From: Candidatus Altiarchaeota archaeon
GTDB lineage: Archaea; Altiarchaeota; Altiarchaeia; IMC4; SCGC-AAA252-I15
Length of the DNA: 64,000 bases
Assembly (NCBI GenBank): GCA_043804895.1
Contig: JAZDIN010000024.1
Span: 11,828 to 75,827, forward strand
Direction of reading: 5' to 3'
Shown in pieces: positions 10,815 to 54,532 of the stretch. Position numbers and translations under genes: made by a program. Position 1 is the stretch's first letter, and each line of letters opens with the position of its first letter. A model generated the notes under the pieces. That model did not search any database. It worked only from the letters and a program-made list of their open reading frames with translations, and was not told the DNA's origin.

Positions 10815-11324
10815 TCATCTGCCTCCGCGTTTCTTCATCTGTATCCCGAGGTCCAGAAGCTGCTTCTGGTAGTTTGAGACTATCATCTTGAAGCTCTTCT
10901 CCTCAAGTTCGCCGGCGTAGTAGCGCTCCTCTGCCTTCCTTATGAGCTCCTGGGTTTTCTTCCTCTGGGCCTCCAGCTCGTCCAAGCGCGGCTCCTGTTT
11001 AGGGGGAGTCTTCTCCTCGTCCTCCCTTTTTTGGATAACATTCTCCCTCTCCTTAAGCTCCTTCACCCGCTCAGCCTTAAGCCTCGCTTCACGTTCCCCC
11101 AGTTCCTTCTCGGTGCGGGCGAGCCTCTGCGGCTCGGATTCCTGTCTGGGGGGAGGCTTAGCAACTTCCACCTCATTCTTTTCCTGCGGCTCCGTTATCG
11201 GCTCCTCAGCCAAGACCTCCTCAGCCGCCCTTTTTTTGAGTATTTCCCTTATTATCAGGGCTACTAGGGCGGCTATTGCCAATAGTCCGGCAACGATTAG
11301 GGCATCCAATACGCTGTCATCCAT
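10815..11324 (-). CDS. Membrane-anchored coiled-coil hypothetical protein
   Basis: N-terminal TM helix, E/K/R-rich helical remainder. Confidence 0.7.
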   Translation of the reverse strand: MDDSVLDALIVAGLLAIAALVALIIREILKKRAAEEVLAEEPITEPQEKNEVEVAKPPPRQESEPQRLARTEKELGEREARLKAERVKELKERENVIQKREDEEKTPPKQEPRLDELEAQRKKTQELIRKAEERYYAGELEEKSFKMIVSNYQKQLLDLGIQMKKRGGR

Positions 11325-11488
11325 TACAAACACGCGAAGGTCTCCTGCCTCACGTTTGCACCTCTTGTGTTTGTTTTGCTTGTCTGCATTTTGAGCGTGT
11401 CACAGCGGAGGCTTTGCCTCCGGTGTGTGTCCGAGACATCAGTCTCGGCCACATTGTGAGTAATACCGCACCCAGGGTGCGGTATTTG
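11322..11488 (-). repeat. Structured intergenic element, family 1 copy A
   Basis: Hairpin AATACCGCACC-CTG-GGTGCGGTATT, two further hairpins, GCTCAAAATGC..., ends TCGCGTGTTTGTAATG on the start codon. Confidence 0.7.
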
Positions 11489-11554
11489 ATATTGTTTTCC
11501 CTTGGACTCAGGGCATATATCATTTATATCCAGTATAATATATGTTACCTGAAA

Positions 11555-13123
11555 ATGCGGCCTTATTTTGCTGTTTGGGTGGTTTTGCTGCTTGCAGGTT
11601 ATGCTATAGCAGAGGACTCATGCAAAGTCGAGGTGTTGGATGATGCTAAGGGGATGCACGCCGTCGTAGAAGCCTGCGACAACATAGGAACATACTCGCT
11701 TGGGGGCCTTTACGACGGGCAGTGGACTAAGCTGACTTTCCAGTACCCTGAGCCGTGGGCTGGTACGTTCACGACGTTCGACATAGACGGCGAATATTTT
11801 TGCACCTCGAAGGACGGCAGAAACTGCACCATCATGGACGGGTATGTTTCTGAGAAGCCTAAGGCTGACGGGGCCGAAGTTGCTACCTCTTGGAATCTCC
11901 CGAGGGTCAGCGTAACGCAATCACTAAACATCATAGAAAACAGGACATTGATAAGATACTCAGTCCACAACACCGACGCGGAAAGCCATAAGGTCGGCAT
12001 ACGCCTCCACTTGGACACGATGTTGGGCGTGAACGATGGGGCGCCGATTTACGTGCCAGGCGACGGGCTGAAGACTGAGGAGGTTGAGTACAGCGGAGCC
12101 GGGCTCAACTTCGGCTACTGGAAGGTGTATAACACCCCTGACAACCCGACCATCGTCGCCACCGGGACGATAGATCCGAACGATGGGATGACGTATCCTA
12201 CGAGGGTCGTCGTGGCAGACTGGAAGAGGAGCAAGGACACTGCATGGGATTACAATGTTGAAGGTAGGCCCATCACCGGGGACAGCGCAGTCATACTGTA
12301 CTTCGACCTCGGCGTCATCGACGCCGGTGGTGAGGCGGCTTTCGAGACAGGCATCGGGAGCGATGCTCCTGTGTTGAGTGAGGAGCAGGGCACCCTGGGT
12401 TTGACCGAGATTGTGCTTAGCAACATATCCGGGGTATATTGCCCTGGGGATGACGTAACATTAAAGGTTGATGTGCTTAGCGCTGGAGTGCCAAGGAGTG
12501 GCTCAGTAGCCTTGAACGTCGAGAAGGACGGGAAGGTCTACTACAGCAATACCCAGAACGCAGCCCTGCCCAAGGACACGATAGTCAGCCTAGTGTACAA
12601 TTGGAAAATCCAAGACGACAAGGAGGGAGGCTACACCGTGAAGGCATGGTTGTACAACGACACTGGAGTTGTCGACTATAAGGAGAAACCAAACGCCGTC
12701 ATTGTGAGTGAGACGCAGTGCGTGAACCGAGTGCTGGAAGTGGGCGGAGGGATAGTGGGGGGTTTCCTGTTCATAGCAGTCATCGTCTCGATAGGCCTTG
12801 CCATGGCCGCCGGATTCTACCTGTGGTTCAACCGAGGCAGCGTCGAGTTCACGAAATACGTTGACGGCGAATACGTCAAAGTCACAGTCCTCAACAACAC
12901 TCAGAAGACGATACACGATATCGTCATAGAGGATACAATACCACCGGAAGTTGAGCTGAAGGTGCGGACGTTGAACGTCATCAGAAGACAGAACATGCTG
13001 GAATGGAGCATTGGTAAGTTGAGGCCGAAGGAGAGCGCGACCCTCGACTATTACGTTAAGGGAGGCCGTGCTGTGAGCAGCTCTTCAGTCAGGTGGGATA
13101 GGGGGGGCAAGAGCCTGGCATGA
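11555..13123 (+). CDS. Secreted/membrane-anchored beta-rich surface protein
   Basis: Signal peptide; VGIRLHLDTMLGVNDGAP segment; TM helix then Ig-like C-terminal domain. Confidence 0.7.
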   Translation: MRPYFAVWVVLLLAGYAIAEDSCKVEVLDDAKGMHAVVEACDNIGTYSLGGLYDGQWTKLTFQYPEPWAGTFTTFDIDGEYFCTSKDGRNCTIMDGYVSEKPKADGAEVATSWNLPRVSVTQSLNIIENRTLIRYSVHNTDAESHKVGIRLHLDTMLGVNDGAPIYVPGDGLKTEEVEYSGAGLNFGYWKVYNTPDNPTIVATGTIDPNDGMTYPTRVVVADWKRSKDTAWDYNVEGRPITGDSAVILYFDLGVIDAGGEAAFETGIGSDAPVLSEEQGTLGLTEIVLSNISGVYCPGDDVTLKVDVLSAGVPRSGSVALNVEKDGKVYYSNTQNAALPKDTIVSLVYNWKIQDDKEGGYTVKAWLYNDTGVVDYKEKPNAVIVSETQCVNRVLEVGGGIVGGFLFIAVIVSIGLAMAAGFYLWFNRGSVEFTKYVDGEYVKVTVLNNTQKTIHDIVIEDTIPPEVELKVRTLNVIRRQNMLEWSIGKLRPKESATLDYYVKGGRAVSSSSVRWDRGGKSLA

Positions 13124-52852: not shown

Positions 52853-53757
52853 TGGTGAGGGTGATGCCTCTTCAGCCTGTGCTCGACATCCTTGTGGGAC
52901 ATAAGATGAAGTTCTATGACGATGAGCCCGAGGAATATCAGCAACCCGCCTGAGATATGATACGACGACAGACGCTCCCCTAAAAGCGTCGTCGAATACA
53001 AGACCCCGAATAGGGGTATGCTCAGGGATGCTAATCCCACGTTCGCTGCGCTCGTGTGCTCGAACGCATAATACCAGAGGTACCGGCCTATAAGGTAGAC
53101 CAAAACAACCAACCCAGTCATGTAGAGGAAGACCTTCGGCTCGAAAATGAGTGGGATCCTATCAGCCGACACCGCAGTCAATATGAGGCCTGAGAAGCCG
53201 TAGTAGCCTATAACTATAACCTCCGGAGGGATGCGGCTTAGATACTTTTTCACCAGGATGTTGGCTGAAGCCCAGAAGAAAGCGGCAAGGAGTAGGAGGC
53301 CGTCGCCGTGGGTTGGTTTCACGTCGACTGTGAAGTTCCTGGTTGCGATTAAGAGTATGCCGCTGACCATCAGGATGGCGCCGATGACATGGTTGATGCT
53401 AAGCTTCTCCCGTAGCATGACGACGCCCATCAGAGCTATCAAGAGCGAATTCAACCTGGTGAGGAGGACCGCATTCGTGGCTGTGGACTCCCTCAGGCCT
53501 GTGACGTAGAAAAGCTGCGCAAGAAGCCCGCTTATGATGCCGACCGCTAGGAGGACTATGAATTGTCTCCTGCTCATCGCATTTATCTCCCGCATCTTGT
53601 GCTCAGCTTCCAGCACGAGGAAGAGTATGAGAGCAGCGAAGACCGATGAAACGGCTGCGAGCACTATAGGGGGCATGTAGGAGAGAAGAACCTTGCCGAA
53701 TGTCGGCTCAAGGGCCAGGAACATGCAGCTGATGAGAGCTATCGTGGTCCCCTTCAT
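52849..53757 (-). CDS. DMT/EamA family transporter
   Basis: Ten TM helices in two EamA repeats; His-rich tail. Confidence 0.88.
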   Translation of the reverse strand: MKGTTIALISCMFLALEPTFGKVLLSYMPPIVLAAVSSVFAALILFLVLEAEHKMREINAMSRRQFIVLLAVGIISGLLAQLFYVTGLRESTATNAVLLTRLNSLLIALMGVVMLREKLSINHVIGAILMVSGILLIATRNFTVDVKPTHGDGLLLLAAFFWASANILVKKYLSRIPPEVIVIGYYGFSGLILTAVSADRIPLIFEPKVFLYMTGLVVLVYLIGRYLWYYAFEHTSAANVGLASLSIPLFGVLYSTTLLGERLSSYHISGGLLIFLGLIVIELHLMSHKDVEHRLKRHHPHH

Positions 53758-53792
53758 TGGTTCTATTTATTGTCCACATCAATATATACTCT

Positions 53793-54434
53793 GTGAAGGA
53801 AATCTTCCCGAAAGTTTATATCGTGGATGGGAAACTGGCGACCGCGAACTCCACCCCAAAGTACAGGGTCTACAACGAGAAGACAATCTACAAGGGAGGC
53901 GTCGAATATAGGATTTGGGACCCGTACCGCAGCAAAGTGGCTGCCGCCCTAGCGAAGGGCATGAAAACATTCCCTGTGAAACCAGGCTCATTCGTACTCT
54001 ACCTTGGCGCATCTTCAGGTACGACGGCAAGCCACATAGCAGACATAGCAGACACCGTGTACTGCGTGGAGTTCAGCAAGAGGATGATGCGGGAGCTGAT
54101 GCTCGTGTGCGAGCGAAAAGAGAACATGATTCCGATATTAGCCGACGCCCGCCATCCCTGGGAATACAGCAACACCGTCGCGCAGGCCGACGTCCTAGTC
54201 CAGGATGTCGCCCAGCCGGACCAATCCGGAATTGTAATCAACAACCATGACACGTTCAAGTTCAAGGACGGCCTCCTTTCCATAAAAGCGAGGAGCATAA
54301 ACTCAGTCAAAGACCCCCAGAAGGTGTTCAGGGCTGAAGTCGAAAAACTGAAAGGCAGATTCCACATCCTGGAGGAGATAGACTTGATGCCATACGAGGA
54401 AGACCACATACTAGTCAACCTCAAGGCAAAATAG
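53793..54434 (+). CDS. flpA: Fibrillarin-like rRNA/tRNA 2'-O-methyltransferase
   Basis: WDPYRSKVAA, LYLGASSGTTASH, DVAQP. Confidence 0.95.
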   Translation: MKEIFPKVYIVDGKLATANSTPKYRVYNEKTIYKGGVEYRIWDPYRSKVAAALAKGMKTFPVKPGSFVLYLGASSGTTASHIADIADTVYCVEFSKRMMRELMLVCERKENMIPILADARHPWEYSNTVAQADVLVQDVAQPDQSGIVINNHDTFKFKDGLLSIKARSINSVKDPQKVFRAEVEKLKGRFHILEEIDLMPYEEDHILVNLKAK

Positions 54435-54532
54435 CATACTCCGCCTTAAAGGGCGGAGTATTACTTATAAACACGCACTATGGACAACATAGTATACTGG
54501 GGTGAAAACGCAATATTCGCGTGTTTGTAATG
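54435..54532 (+). repeat. Structured intergenic element, family 1 copy C
   Basis: ATACTCCGCC-TTAAAG-GGCGGAGTAT hairpin; ends TTCGCGTGTTTGTAATG on the CYTH gene start. Confidence 0.65.

Follow-up and report, generated by a model that had tools for sequence, protein, structure and literature searches.

The window analysed here, a 64,000-nucleotide (nt) stretch of contig JAZDIN010000024.1 from a Candidatus Altiarchaeota archaeon, holds three copies of a small repeated element, each of which ends exactly on the start codon of a gene. The genome to which the window belongs (G000; 1.58 Mb in 71 contigs, 88.7% complete) carries 18 copies in all. We consider it likely that these copies are non-autonomous, internally deleted derivatives of an IS200/IS605 insertion sequence (IS), that is, palindrome-associated transposable elements (PATEs) of a kind resembling MITEs (miniature transposable elements with inverted repeats), with a putative outward-facing translation cassette. 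Every window copy contains a hairpin, termed H1, and a short open reading frame (mini-ORF) with a Shine–Dalgarno (SD)-like motif located inside it. The three copies and the genes that they precede are as follows, with scores from a covariance model given for each copy.

11325..11490, minus strand: copy A, long form, 166 nt, running through ATCAAATA, H1, two extra hairpins, an inverted-repeat arm and the mini-ORF with its SD to ...GCGTGTTTGTA; covariance model 56 bits.
11466..11482, minus strand: hairpin H1 of copy A, CCGCACC CTG GGTGCGG, derived from the IS right-end hairpin.
11406..11450, minus strand: the extra hairpins of copy A, GGCCGAGAC..GTCTCGGAC and CCGGAGGC..GCCTCCG, common to three other G000 long-form copies.
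11324..11389, minus strand: mini-ORF of copy A, 21 codons (MQTSKTNTRGANVRQETFACL*), whose TAA overlaps the main ATG as TAATG.
11359-11365, minus strand: SD-like AGAGGTG of copy A, inside the mini-ORF.
11322..11324, minus strand: ATG of a 169-aa coiled-coil and transmembrane ORF without a Pfam family, within the transposon target ATGGA.
19348..19453, minus strand: copy B, short form, 106 nt, between the genes of an ABC ATPase and an ABC-2 permease; covariance model 107 bits.
19430..19446, minus strand: hairpin H1 of copy B, CCGCAG CCTGG CTGCGG, from a fold and coordinate check.
19367..19408, minus strand: mini-ORF of copy B, 13 codons (MPKSKKQIGGRSE*), with its stop TAA at 19367-19369 and the SD GGAGGT at 19379-19384.
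19357-19374, minus strand: 3' hairpin of copy B, GCGAGTA AGAA TACTCGC, overlapping the inverted-repeat arm GCGTATTTG (19350-19358).
19414-19422, minus strand: CAAATATGC, the long-range pairing partner of arm GCGTATTTG in copy B.
19345..19347, minus strand: ATG of the ABC-2 permease, 248 aa; target ATGAA.
54431..54529, plus strand: copy C, 99 nt, a short form that is divergent, lying between the genes of fibrillarin and a CYTH-domain protein; covariance model 33.5 bits.
54439..54458, plus strand: hairpin H1 of copy C, CTCCGCC TTAAAG GGCGGAG, from a fold and coordinate check.
54480..54530, plus strand: mini-ORF of copy C, 16 codons (MDNIVYWGENAIFACL*), stopping on the TAA of TAATG, with the SD-like GGGGTG at 54499-54504.
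54469-54476 and 54519-54526, plus strand: inverted-repeat arms of copy C, AAACACGC and GCGTGTTT.
54530..54532, plus strand: ATG of the CYTH-domain gene, 163 aa; target ATGAG.

An initial annotation of this DNA had noticed that three genes are preceded by a shared motif running into ATG, and the counts bear this out: three occurrences of the 16-mer TCGCGTRTTTGTAATG lie in the window (11322-11337, minus; 19345-19360, minus; 54517-54532, plus), where 0.03 would be expected by chance, and 0 of 100 shuffles attained that number. The common layout that it described is likewise present in all three copies (a GC-rich 5' hairpin, an A-rich linker, an SD-like GGAGGT, AGAGGTG or GGGGTG, and a 3' hairpin or helix using TCGCGT). 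The shared GCTCAAAATGC motif is confirmed too, as is the position of copies B and C directly at the upstream stop codon (TAA at 19450-19452 and TAG at 54432-54434). The first bases of copy B, A+TAA, complete the last codon of the ATPase gene and provide its stop; the first bases of copy C, A+TAG, do the same for fibrillarin.

Throughout G000, TCGCGTRTTTGTAATG is found in 15 exact copies and in three more with one or two mismatches, 18 in total, with none for the reversed-pattern control. The 13-mer TCGCGTRTTTGTA, which is the 16-mer minus ATG, occurs 15 times and is followed by ATG in 15 of 15 cases. The 100–210 nt upstream of all 18 ATGs can be aligned as one family, 100–210 nt also being the size of the element, and every copy ends in ...GCGTRTTTGTA flush on ATG. 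From the 5' end, the order is a tetramer (ATAA, ATAG, ATGA or ATCA), the GC-rich hairpin H1 and, in four copies, two further hairpins; these are followed by CAAATACGC, TCAAAATGCC, an A/C-rich stretch, GGAGGTG, GCGAG-loop-CTCGC, GTATTTGTA and ATG. Identity to copy B ranges from 72 to 96%. A covariance model and genome scan, which the initial annotation had proposed, returned the same 18 copies and no others above 29 bits; the model was built from ten G000 copies, and our own boundaries were redrawn for each window copy.

Built from G000 copies alone, the covariance model was too narrow: of 21 family genomes it detected the element in three, all belonging to genus g1. Distribution was surveyed with a 14-mer from the element 3' end across the 61 genomes of the phylum set. 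The 14-mer was present in 19 of 61 genomes, all of one order (G000 together with 5/20 in family f1, 1/1 in f4 and 12/22 in f5); it was absent from the remaining 17 genomes (families f2, f3, f6, f7, f8 and f9), and the reversed-pattern control gave zero in every genome. A metagenome scan yielded 60 loci, of which 25 were genuine elements and 35 unrelated matches, 30 of the latter being one bacterial coding region that recurs across samples. Among viral contigs, 41 matches to a 17-mer included none with the element architecture and are chance matches. Short copies number about 60 overall, spread over several genomes and metagenomes, and the public records holding the element are titled 'uncultured archaeon', 'Candidatus Altiarchaeota archaeon' or 'Euryarchaeota archaeon'.

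A second multi-hairpin repeat family was seen outside the window, on G000 contig C40 (~16970-17240) and on the minus strand of C53 (~16960 in reverse coordinates). It opens with the same H1-type hairpin (ATAAATA CCGCAGCC TGAA GGCTGCGA TATT), continues with TCTCGGGTTCAGCA ... TGCTGAACCCTCGATAAAAG and stops a short way upstream of ORF starts; a further PATE family with the same right-end hairpin is a possibility.

The genes behind the element are real and diverse. The ATG opens a genuine ORF of 75 to more than 1000 codons in 17 of the 18 G000 copies, and 14 of these 17 genes contain Pfam families. They include information-processing genes (Rad51/RadA, Hjc, a class I tRNA synthetase that is IleRS-like (ileS), and ribosomal L16/L10e), enzymes (an EgsA-like Fe-ADH, the acetolactate synthase small subunit, a GltD-like oxidoreductase and a glycosyltransferase), and genes for Pcc1, a T2SS-F protein, an ABC-2 permease, an ABC ATPase, and CYTH and PIN domain proteins. 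At the 18th copy, on contig C45 (L017:1514-1950), the ATG opens a 6-codon ORF whose TGA overlaps the ATG of a 139-aa ORF (ATGA). This locus thus forms a chain in which a 33-codon mini-ORF ending on TAATG leads to the 6-codon ORF and then to the 139-aa ORF.

Comparison with the congeners G001–G004, in which protein identity at the compared genes is only 56–87%, demonstrated empty sites at four of four loci checked. The ABC ATPase and permease genes meet in an ATGA overlap in all three congeners with an ortholog; fibrillarin and CYTH do so in two of four, with a 30-nt spacer in G003 and a different upstream context in G001. Upstream of radA (4/4 congeners) and of L10e (3/3), a conserved TATA-like box ~30–35 nt before the ATG is all that is present. 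The G000 element sits exactly between the ATG and the base preceding it. Removing the element from copies B and C restores ...GGA AGA TGA and ...GCA AAA TGA, which are the overlaps of the relatives, with zero duplicated bases, although this duplication test carries an ambiguity of 1–2 nt (A or AT), the first bases of the element resembling the target.

Judged by these comparisons, the repeats are insertions without target duplication. The initial annotation had proposed looking for empty sites at both operon junctions, and these exist; it was wrong in picturing copy B as an insertion into a TAATG overlap with its TAA duplicated, since the relatives have ATGA there. It follows that the TAA or TAG at the 5' end of the element belongs to the element and is not duplicated target. 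A TAATG target with duplication of TAA or TA was considered and is excluded by the empty sites of the relatives, which lack TA before ATG. The gene starts themselves offer a further observation: SD-like 5-mers precede ~15% of crudely predicted G000 genes, against 6% in a control window, with a peak at −12 to −10. The scarcity of such motifs, together with the TATA-like box ~30 nt before the radA and L10e ATGs, suggests that leaderless mRNAs are common in this lineage.

Both ends of the element are homologous to the ends of a transposase-bearing IS that circulates in the same archaeal order. Reverse-complementing the right end of the IS, a hairpin followed by TCATTCAT / TCGTTTAT, gives the gene-distal end of the element (ATAAACGA/ATCAAATA with H1); the left end of the IS, treated likewise, gives the gene-proximal end (...SD...hairpin...CTTGCGTGTTTGTA). 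In the full-length IS, a Y1/HUH transposase gene lies on the strand opposite to the element reading. Locus G041:C8 retains a decayed Y1 transposase gene (PF01797) between both element ends, with CAT abutting CACATACGCGCAAGGATACT...hairpin...CACCTCT on one side (the reverse complement of the element 3' end) and CTCCACAC TTCA GTGTGGAG TTGTTTGATTTT on the other (the reverse complement of the element 5' end). Locus G020:C45 encodes an intact 156-aa TnpA with the HUH motif (PF01797, E 9.4e-38). Its left end reads TTCAT, then at the boundary TACAACTTTCGCAAGGATA CTGCGGGC TTTA GCCCGCAG AGGAATTGCG...CTTCCTCCTT, and its right end reads ACCGCCGCC TTCA GGCGGCGG TCATTCAT. Reverse-complemented, this right end (ATGAATGA CCGCCGCC TGAA GGCGGCGG) matches the G000 5' end (ATAAACGA CCGCAGCC TGAA GGCTGCGG), the differences being one stem pair, which is compensated, and a few bases of the tail. 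At G020:C36 the left end shares 90–91% identity over 51–53 nt with the G000 copies before ileS and on C45.

PATEs consist of the right and left ends of an IS200/IS605 element with the transposase core deleted, their terminus-to-hairpin distance is longer at the 5' (left) end, and IS200/IS605 elements insert 3' of a short fixed sequence beside the left end (PMC3119063). The elements described here are an IS right end and left end without the transposase core and so fit this definition. Their terminus-to-hairpin distance is ~17 nt at the left end (~12–17 nt to a hairpin or helix across copies) and 8–10 nt at the right end. They have near-terminal hairpins without terminal inverted repeats (TIRs), in that the 13–14 nt inverted repeat has one arm internal. 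Four of the five testable defining features of PATEs are present, the exception being a resident transposase in G000. Derivation from IS200/IS605 is well supported.

The inverted repeat and its boundaries might instead point to a classical TIR-type MITE of the Stowaway/IS630-like kind, bounded by the 13–14 nt repeat TACAAACACGCAAG/CTTGCGTGTTTGTA and inserted between TA and ATG with TA duplication. The repeat is perfect in the G041 and G043 copies, and TA stands at the left boundary of 16 of the 18 G000 copies and at the right boundary of all 18. However, the left arm is internal, with H1 and 40–150 nt of conserved element outside it; no TA precedes the ATG at the empty sites of the relatives; and just 4.7% of G000 starts have TA before them. 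The transposase gene that these ends flank is of the Y1 and not of the DDE type, and PF13358 (DDE_3) gave zero matches in G000, G041, G042 and G043, the four of five element-bearing genomes that were searched. We regard this origin as most improbable. The CAAATACGC/GCGTATTTG pairing of G000 corresponds to the TACAAACACGCAAG/CTTGCGTGTTTGTA repeat of other genomes, and what appears as a long-range helix is an inverted repeat of the IS left-end terminus.

Every copy ends on a start codon because the IS left end abuts TTCAT, the complement of ATGAA. TTCAT flanks 13 of the 17 listed left ends, the other four having CTCAT, ATCAT, ACCAT and GTCAT, so that CAT is present in 17 of 17. On the gene side, ATGAA follows 7 of the 18 G000 copies, against 13.4% of predicted starts, and 25 of 36 copies in other genomes; ATGRR follows 14 of the 18, against a 42% baseline. 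When a pattern free of ATG was applied to metagenome contigs, TAATG came next in 25 of the 25 genuine elements, and in G041–G043 an ATG adjoins 18 of 19 right ends, with TA+ATG at the remaining one. The initial annotation had suggested a small non-autonomous mobile element targeting stop/start junctions. The first half of that suggestion stands; the target is TTCAT (= ATGAA), and it extends beyond such junctions to start codons generally, including those of promoter-proximal genes such as radA and L10e.

Two loci deserve separate description. The TA+ATG copy is L132 (G041:C47, minus strand; ..GTTTGTATAATG), which also has a long 5' part matching the right-end-proximal region of the decayed IS in G041:C8. 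At L259 (G049:C16), a full-length IS adjoins a tandem ATGAA, ATGAAATTC; the ATG next to the element opens 2 codons, and the real ORF of 243 aa begins 5 nt beyond it, possibly the footprint of repeated insertion or excision at one site.

The hairpins could be signals in DNA or structures in RNA. The initial annotation had offered as one identity a translational leader, and a conserved cis-acting RNA of this kind (riboswitch-like, or a translational enhancer) would use its helix and hairpin to present a distant SD to the AUG, the shared sequence marking a regulon. Such a leader would account for the strand of the element, always that of the downstream gene, and for the SD and the mini-ORF ATG, which exceed all other internal blocks in conservation. 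Compared with shuffles, the three window copies fold much more stably (z −2.9 to −6.8), but they do so on both strands, and the mean fold energy over 54 copies is −36.84 kcal/mol in the sense and −36.85 kcal/mol in the antisense orientation. Non-Watson–Crick positions in 84 distinct stems comprise 12 G.T and 18 A.C. This lack of G-U bias and the equal folding of both strands fit single-stranded-DNA transposition signals, since a transcribed RNA would favour G-U on one strand.

No covariation with a G-U bias was seen on the transcribed strand. One long-range helix pair switches from T-A (12 copies) to C-G (5), a switch that fits inverted-repeat subfamilies as well as an RNA helix. The helices are near-invariant within G000, with only 2 of 20 pairs changed on both sides, and the H1 sequence is wholly different between genomes yet still forms a hairpin. 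An RNA leader is further opposed by the empty sites at four of four congener loci, which show that its position at orthologous genes is not conserved, by the functionally unrelated downstream genes and by the homology of both ends to IS ends. A search of the window with Rfam at gathering thresholds, also proposed by the initial annotation, returned only 16S rRNA and two tRNAs, and no family reached its gathering score on the element. We judge a structured leader very unlikely as the primary identity of the repeat; it is plausible that the SD and mini-ORF may, in addition, contribute to translation of the downstream gene.

The gene-facing arm is where such a role would reside. In the ten-copy alignment, conservation is 100% at the mini-ORF ATG and 94% at GGAGGTG, compared with 78% in the linker and 39–53% in the loops. 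The mini-ORF reaches the TAA of TAATG in five G000 copies, namely A and C in the window, the one on C45 and those preceding egsA and ileS; among the 54 copies scored across genomes, at least 21 have a mini-ORF that ends on TAATG. The scoring heuristic missed seven of the 54, some of which were assessed by direct inspection; copy C and L112, both among those missed, likewise end on TAATG. The frame is kept at nine mini-ORF-ATG-to-main-ATG distances by a hand tally (50, 53, 56, 59, 65, 71, 77, 80 and 101 nt). At L134/L184, a G041 copy and its same-locus metagenome counterpart, two separate indels jointly restore the mini-ORF frame. In L124 and L079, a GTA to GAA change places the mini-ORF in another frame, where it ends on a new TGA one base before the ATG. 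Considering these features, the chances that the arm is a portable translation-initiation cassette appear to us evenly balanced.

One copy in a congener stands apart. In L077 (G002:C39:433-529, minus strand), located between L10e and an aEF-1-beta-like gene, both the 3' hairpin and the right inverted-repeat arm are missing, and the GGAGGTG lies 6 nt from the ATG (GGAGGTGTCTGTAATG). A deletion appears to have brought the SD to canonical spacing.

A possible source of the SD lies in the IS itself. In the full IS, the complement of the element SD (CCTCC) lies in the tnpA 5' untranslated region (UTR), ~85–100 nt upstream of the tnpA SD. IS200 sequesters its SD, and the outward SD may have begun as the anti-SD of a transposase leader. 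Extended to the whole arm, this would leave the element mobile but make passengers of its SD and mini-ORF, which would be complementary to the anti-SD region in the 5' UTR of the transposase gene and play no part in host translation, the start-codon location being a by-product of the TTCAT target and the loss of harmful copies. The CCTCC in the tnpA 5' UTR, consistent with SD sequestration in IS200, agrees with this, as do the non-canonical SD-to-ATG distance and the many mini-ORFs that stop early. It is less easily reconciled with essential genes lying 100–210 nt behind their former promoter or SD with the element alone between, or with an SD and mini-ORF ATG that are conserved in transposase-less copies diverged by ~20%. 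The two frame-restoring indels of L134/L184 and the G002 copy in which loss of the 3' hairpin leaves the SD close to the ATG also speak against it, as does an excess of start-codon copies over the ~42% expected. We consider it rather unlikely that the SD and mini-ORF are such passengers and nothing more.

Taken together, these results lead us to a tentative proposal, which we rate as somewhat less likely than not: an IS200/IS605 lineage that has become adapted to start codons through its TTCAT target (ATGAA being the commonest start context), an outward SD with a TAATG mini-ORF, and resealing of the upstream gene by first base plus stop, and on which the host would now depend. Several observations weigh against this proposal or against the mobility that it presupposes. 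No PF01797 match was found in the 88.7% complete G000, so that movement there was historical or driven in trans; a PF01797 gene is present in 14 of the 49 genomes of the order. The canonical left-end hairpin of the IS is absent from the G000 short forms, which may be unable to move. A 13-codon mini-ORF (MPNSQTNTGGASE-like) is found in 11 G000 copies; its stop lies 19–26 nt ahead of the main ATG, except at the glycosyltransferase gene, where the gap is 73 nt. In four G041-type copies a deletion of 1 nt leaves an 8-codon ORF, and in two copies the mini-ORF is in frame with the main ORF, a counter-example to TAATG coupling. The early-stopping and frameshifted mini-ORFs mean that TAATG coupling is not universal. 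Between the element SD and the ATG, moreover, there are 35–45 nt if the 3' hairpin is included.

The location at start codons also bears on the proposal. When ATGRR sites were placed on a crude map of the G000 genes, at most 820 fell at gene starts, 1149 in non-coding and 13494 in coding sequence. If insertions into coding sequence were lost, ~42% of copies would be expected at starts, against 17–18 of 18 seen in G000 and nearly all of the ~40 further short copies. The target and purifying selection together do not explain this exclusivity; either selection retains start-codon copies or an unseen targeting factor acts. Full-length IS copies are mixed: four lie at ORF starts (105, 160, 497 and 113 aa), two lie elsewhere (20 and 23 aa), and for one there is an offset of 5 nt.

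On the proposed mechanism, the element would be moved as single-stranded DNA by a Y1 transposase supplied in trans ('peel and paste'), with DNA-level transposition signals provided by its hairpins and by the left-end terminus present in inverted copy, both points following what is known of the family. After insertion, the left-end arm, read on the gene strand, would let ribosomes start at the displaced ATG, a step that we rate as equally open to being right or wrong. Two routes can be envisaged: SD-driven initiation with the 3' hairpin looped out, and termination followed by re-initiation from a mini-ORF that stops on TAATG. At ATGA overlaps, the first bases A+TAA or A+TAG would reseal the upstream gene, for which the balance of probability is again close to level. 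Cassette and resealing would make start-codon insertions tolerable and, with time, indispensable, and copies at real start codons would persist. In this process, radA and L10e would have changed from near-leaderless to leadered genes.

The window further contains the three RNA genes matched by Rfam. An archaeal 16S rRNA gene (62895-64000, plus strand; model positions 1-1094 of 1478) runs out of the window end. A tRNA match at 23587-23747 (minus) spans 161 nt against a 71-position model, which makes a long intron probable, and a second, ordinary tRNA lies at 16941-17015 (minus).

The transposon target, which contains the complement of ATG, gives a concrete explanation for a repeat pattern that is always on a start codon. 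It also has a practical consequence for annotation: the 100–210 nt 'intergenic' stretches before essential genes in these metagenome-assembled genomes are mobile DNA, and short ORFs inside them should not be called genes. If the gene-facing arm does drive translation, this would apparently be the first natural transposon end to serve as a portable ribosome-binding and re-initiation cassette. It would be a naturally mobile 'bicistronic design' that turns leaderless or overlapped genes (radA, ileS, L10e) into SD-led genes, and leaderless and overlapping genes would have been rewired in a little-studied archaeal phylum. A limited search of the open-access literature revealed neither start-codon-associated PATEs or MITEs in archaea nor any start-codon-bound family of these that carries an outward SD and mini-ORF.

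Compared with known systems, the element shares with PATEs and IS200/IS605 members such as ISHp608 and ISDra2 its near-terminal hairpins in place of TIRs and the absence of target duplication. ISDra2 targets TTGAT and ISHp608 targets TTAC, whereas the target here, TTCAT, complements a start codon and two further bases. Further likenesses (PMC3119063) are insertion beside a fixed 4–6 nt at the left end, the longer terminus-to-hairpin distance at that end, short forms that arise by deletion of the transposase core, and a Y1/HUH TnpA in full-length relatives. The element differs in that nearly all short copies lie exactly at functional start codons, in the SD and mini-ORF that the left-end arm carries on the opposite strand, in the internal inverted copy of the left-end terminus, and in its lineage, an Altiarchaeota-like order.

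Other small repeats resemble it in their relation to neighbouring genes. The mycobacterial interspersed repetitive units (MIRUs) of Mycobacterium tuberculosis, reportedly described by Supply et al. in 1997, are said to be intercistronic repeats with small ORFs that overlap the flanking stop and start codons. In MIRUs, as proposed here, small ORFs keep translation coupled across an insertion; MIRUs, however, are bacterial tandem units of 40–100 bp without hairpins, a known transposase parent or an SD. Bacterial MITEs of the Correia, ERIC and BOX type are likewise small hairpin-rich repeats, co-transcribed with their neighbours and able to alter expression, but they occupy loosely defined intergenic sites and are not flush with start codons, and they derive from or resemble TIR elements.

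The putative cassette itself has parallels in translation. Many copies resemble the synthetic bicistronic design, in which a short ORF contains the SD of the next gene and stops on TAATG, and the hairpin-bridged ribosome-binding site of phage T4 gene 38 is similar in that a hairpin brings the SD near the AUG. Those systems are engineered or confined to a single gene, whereas the module described here is a transposon end with a putative function.

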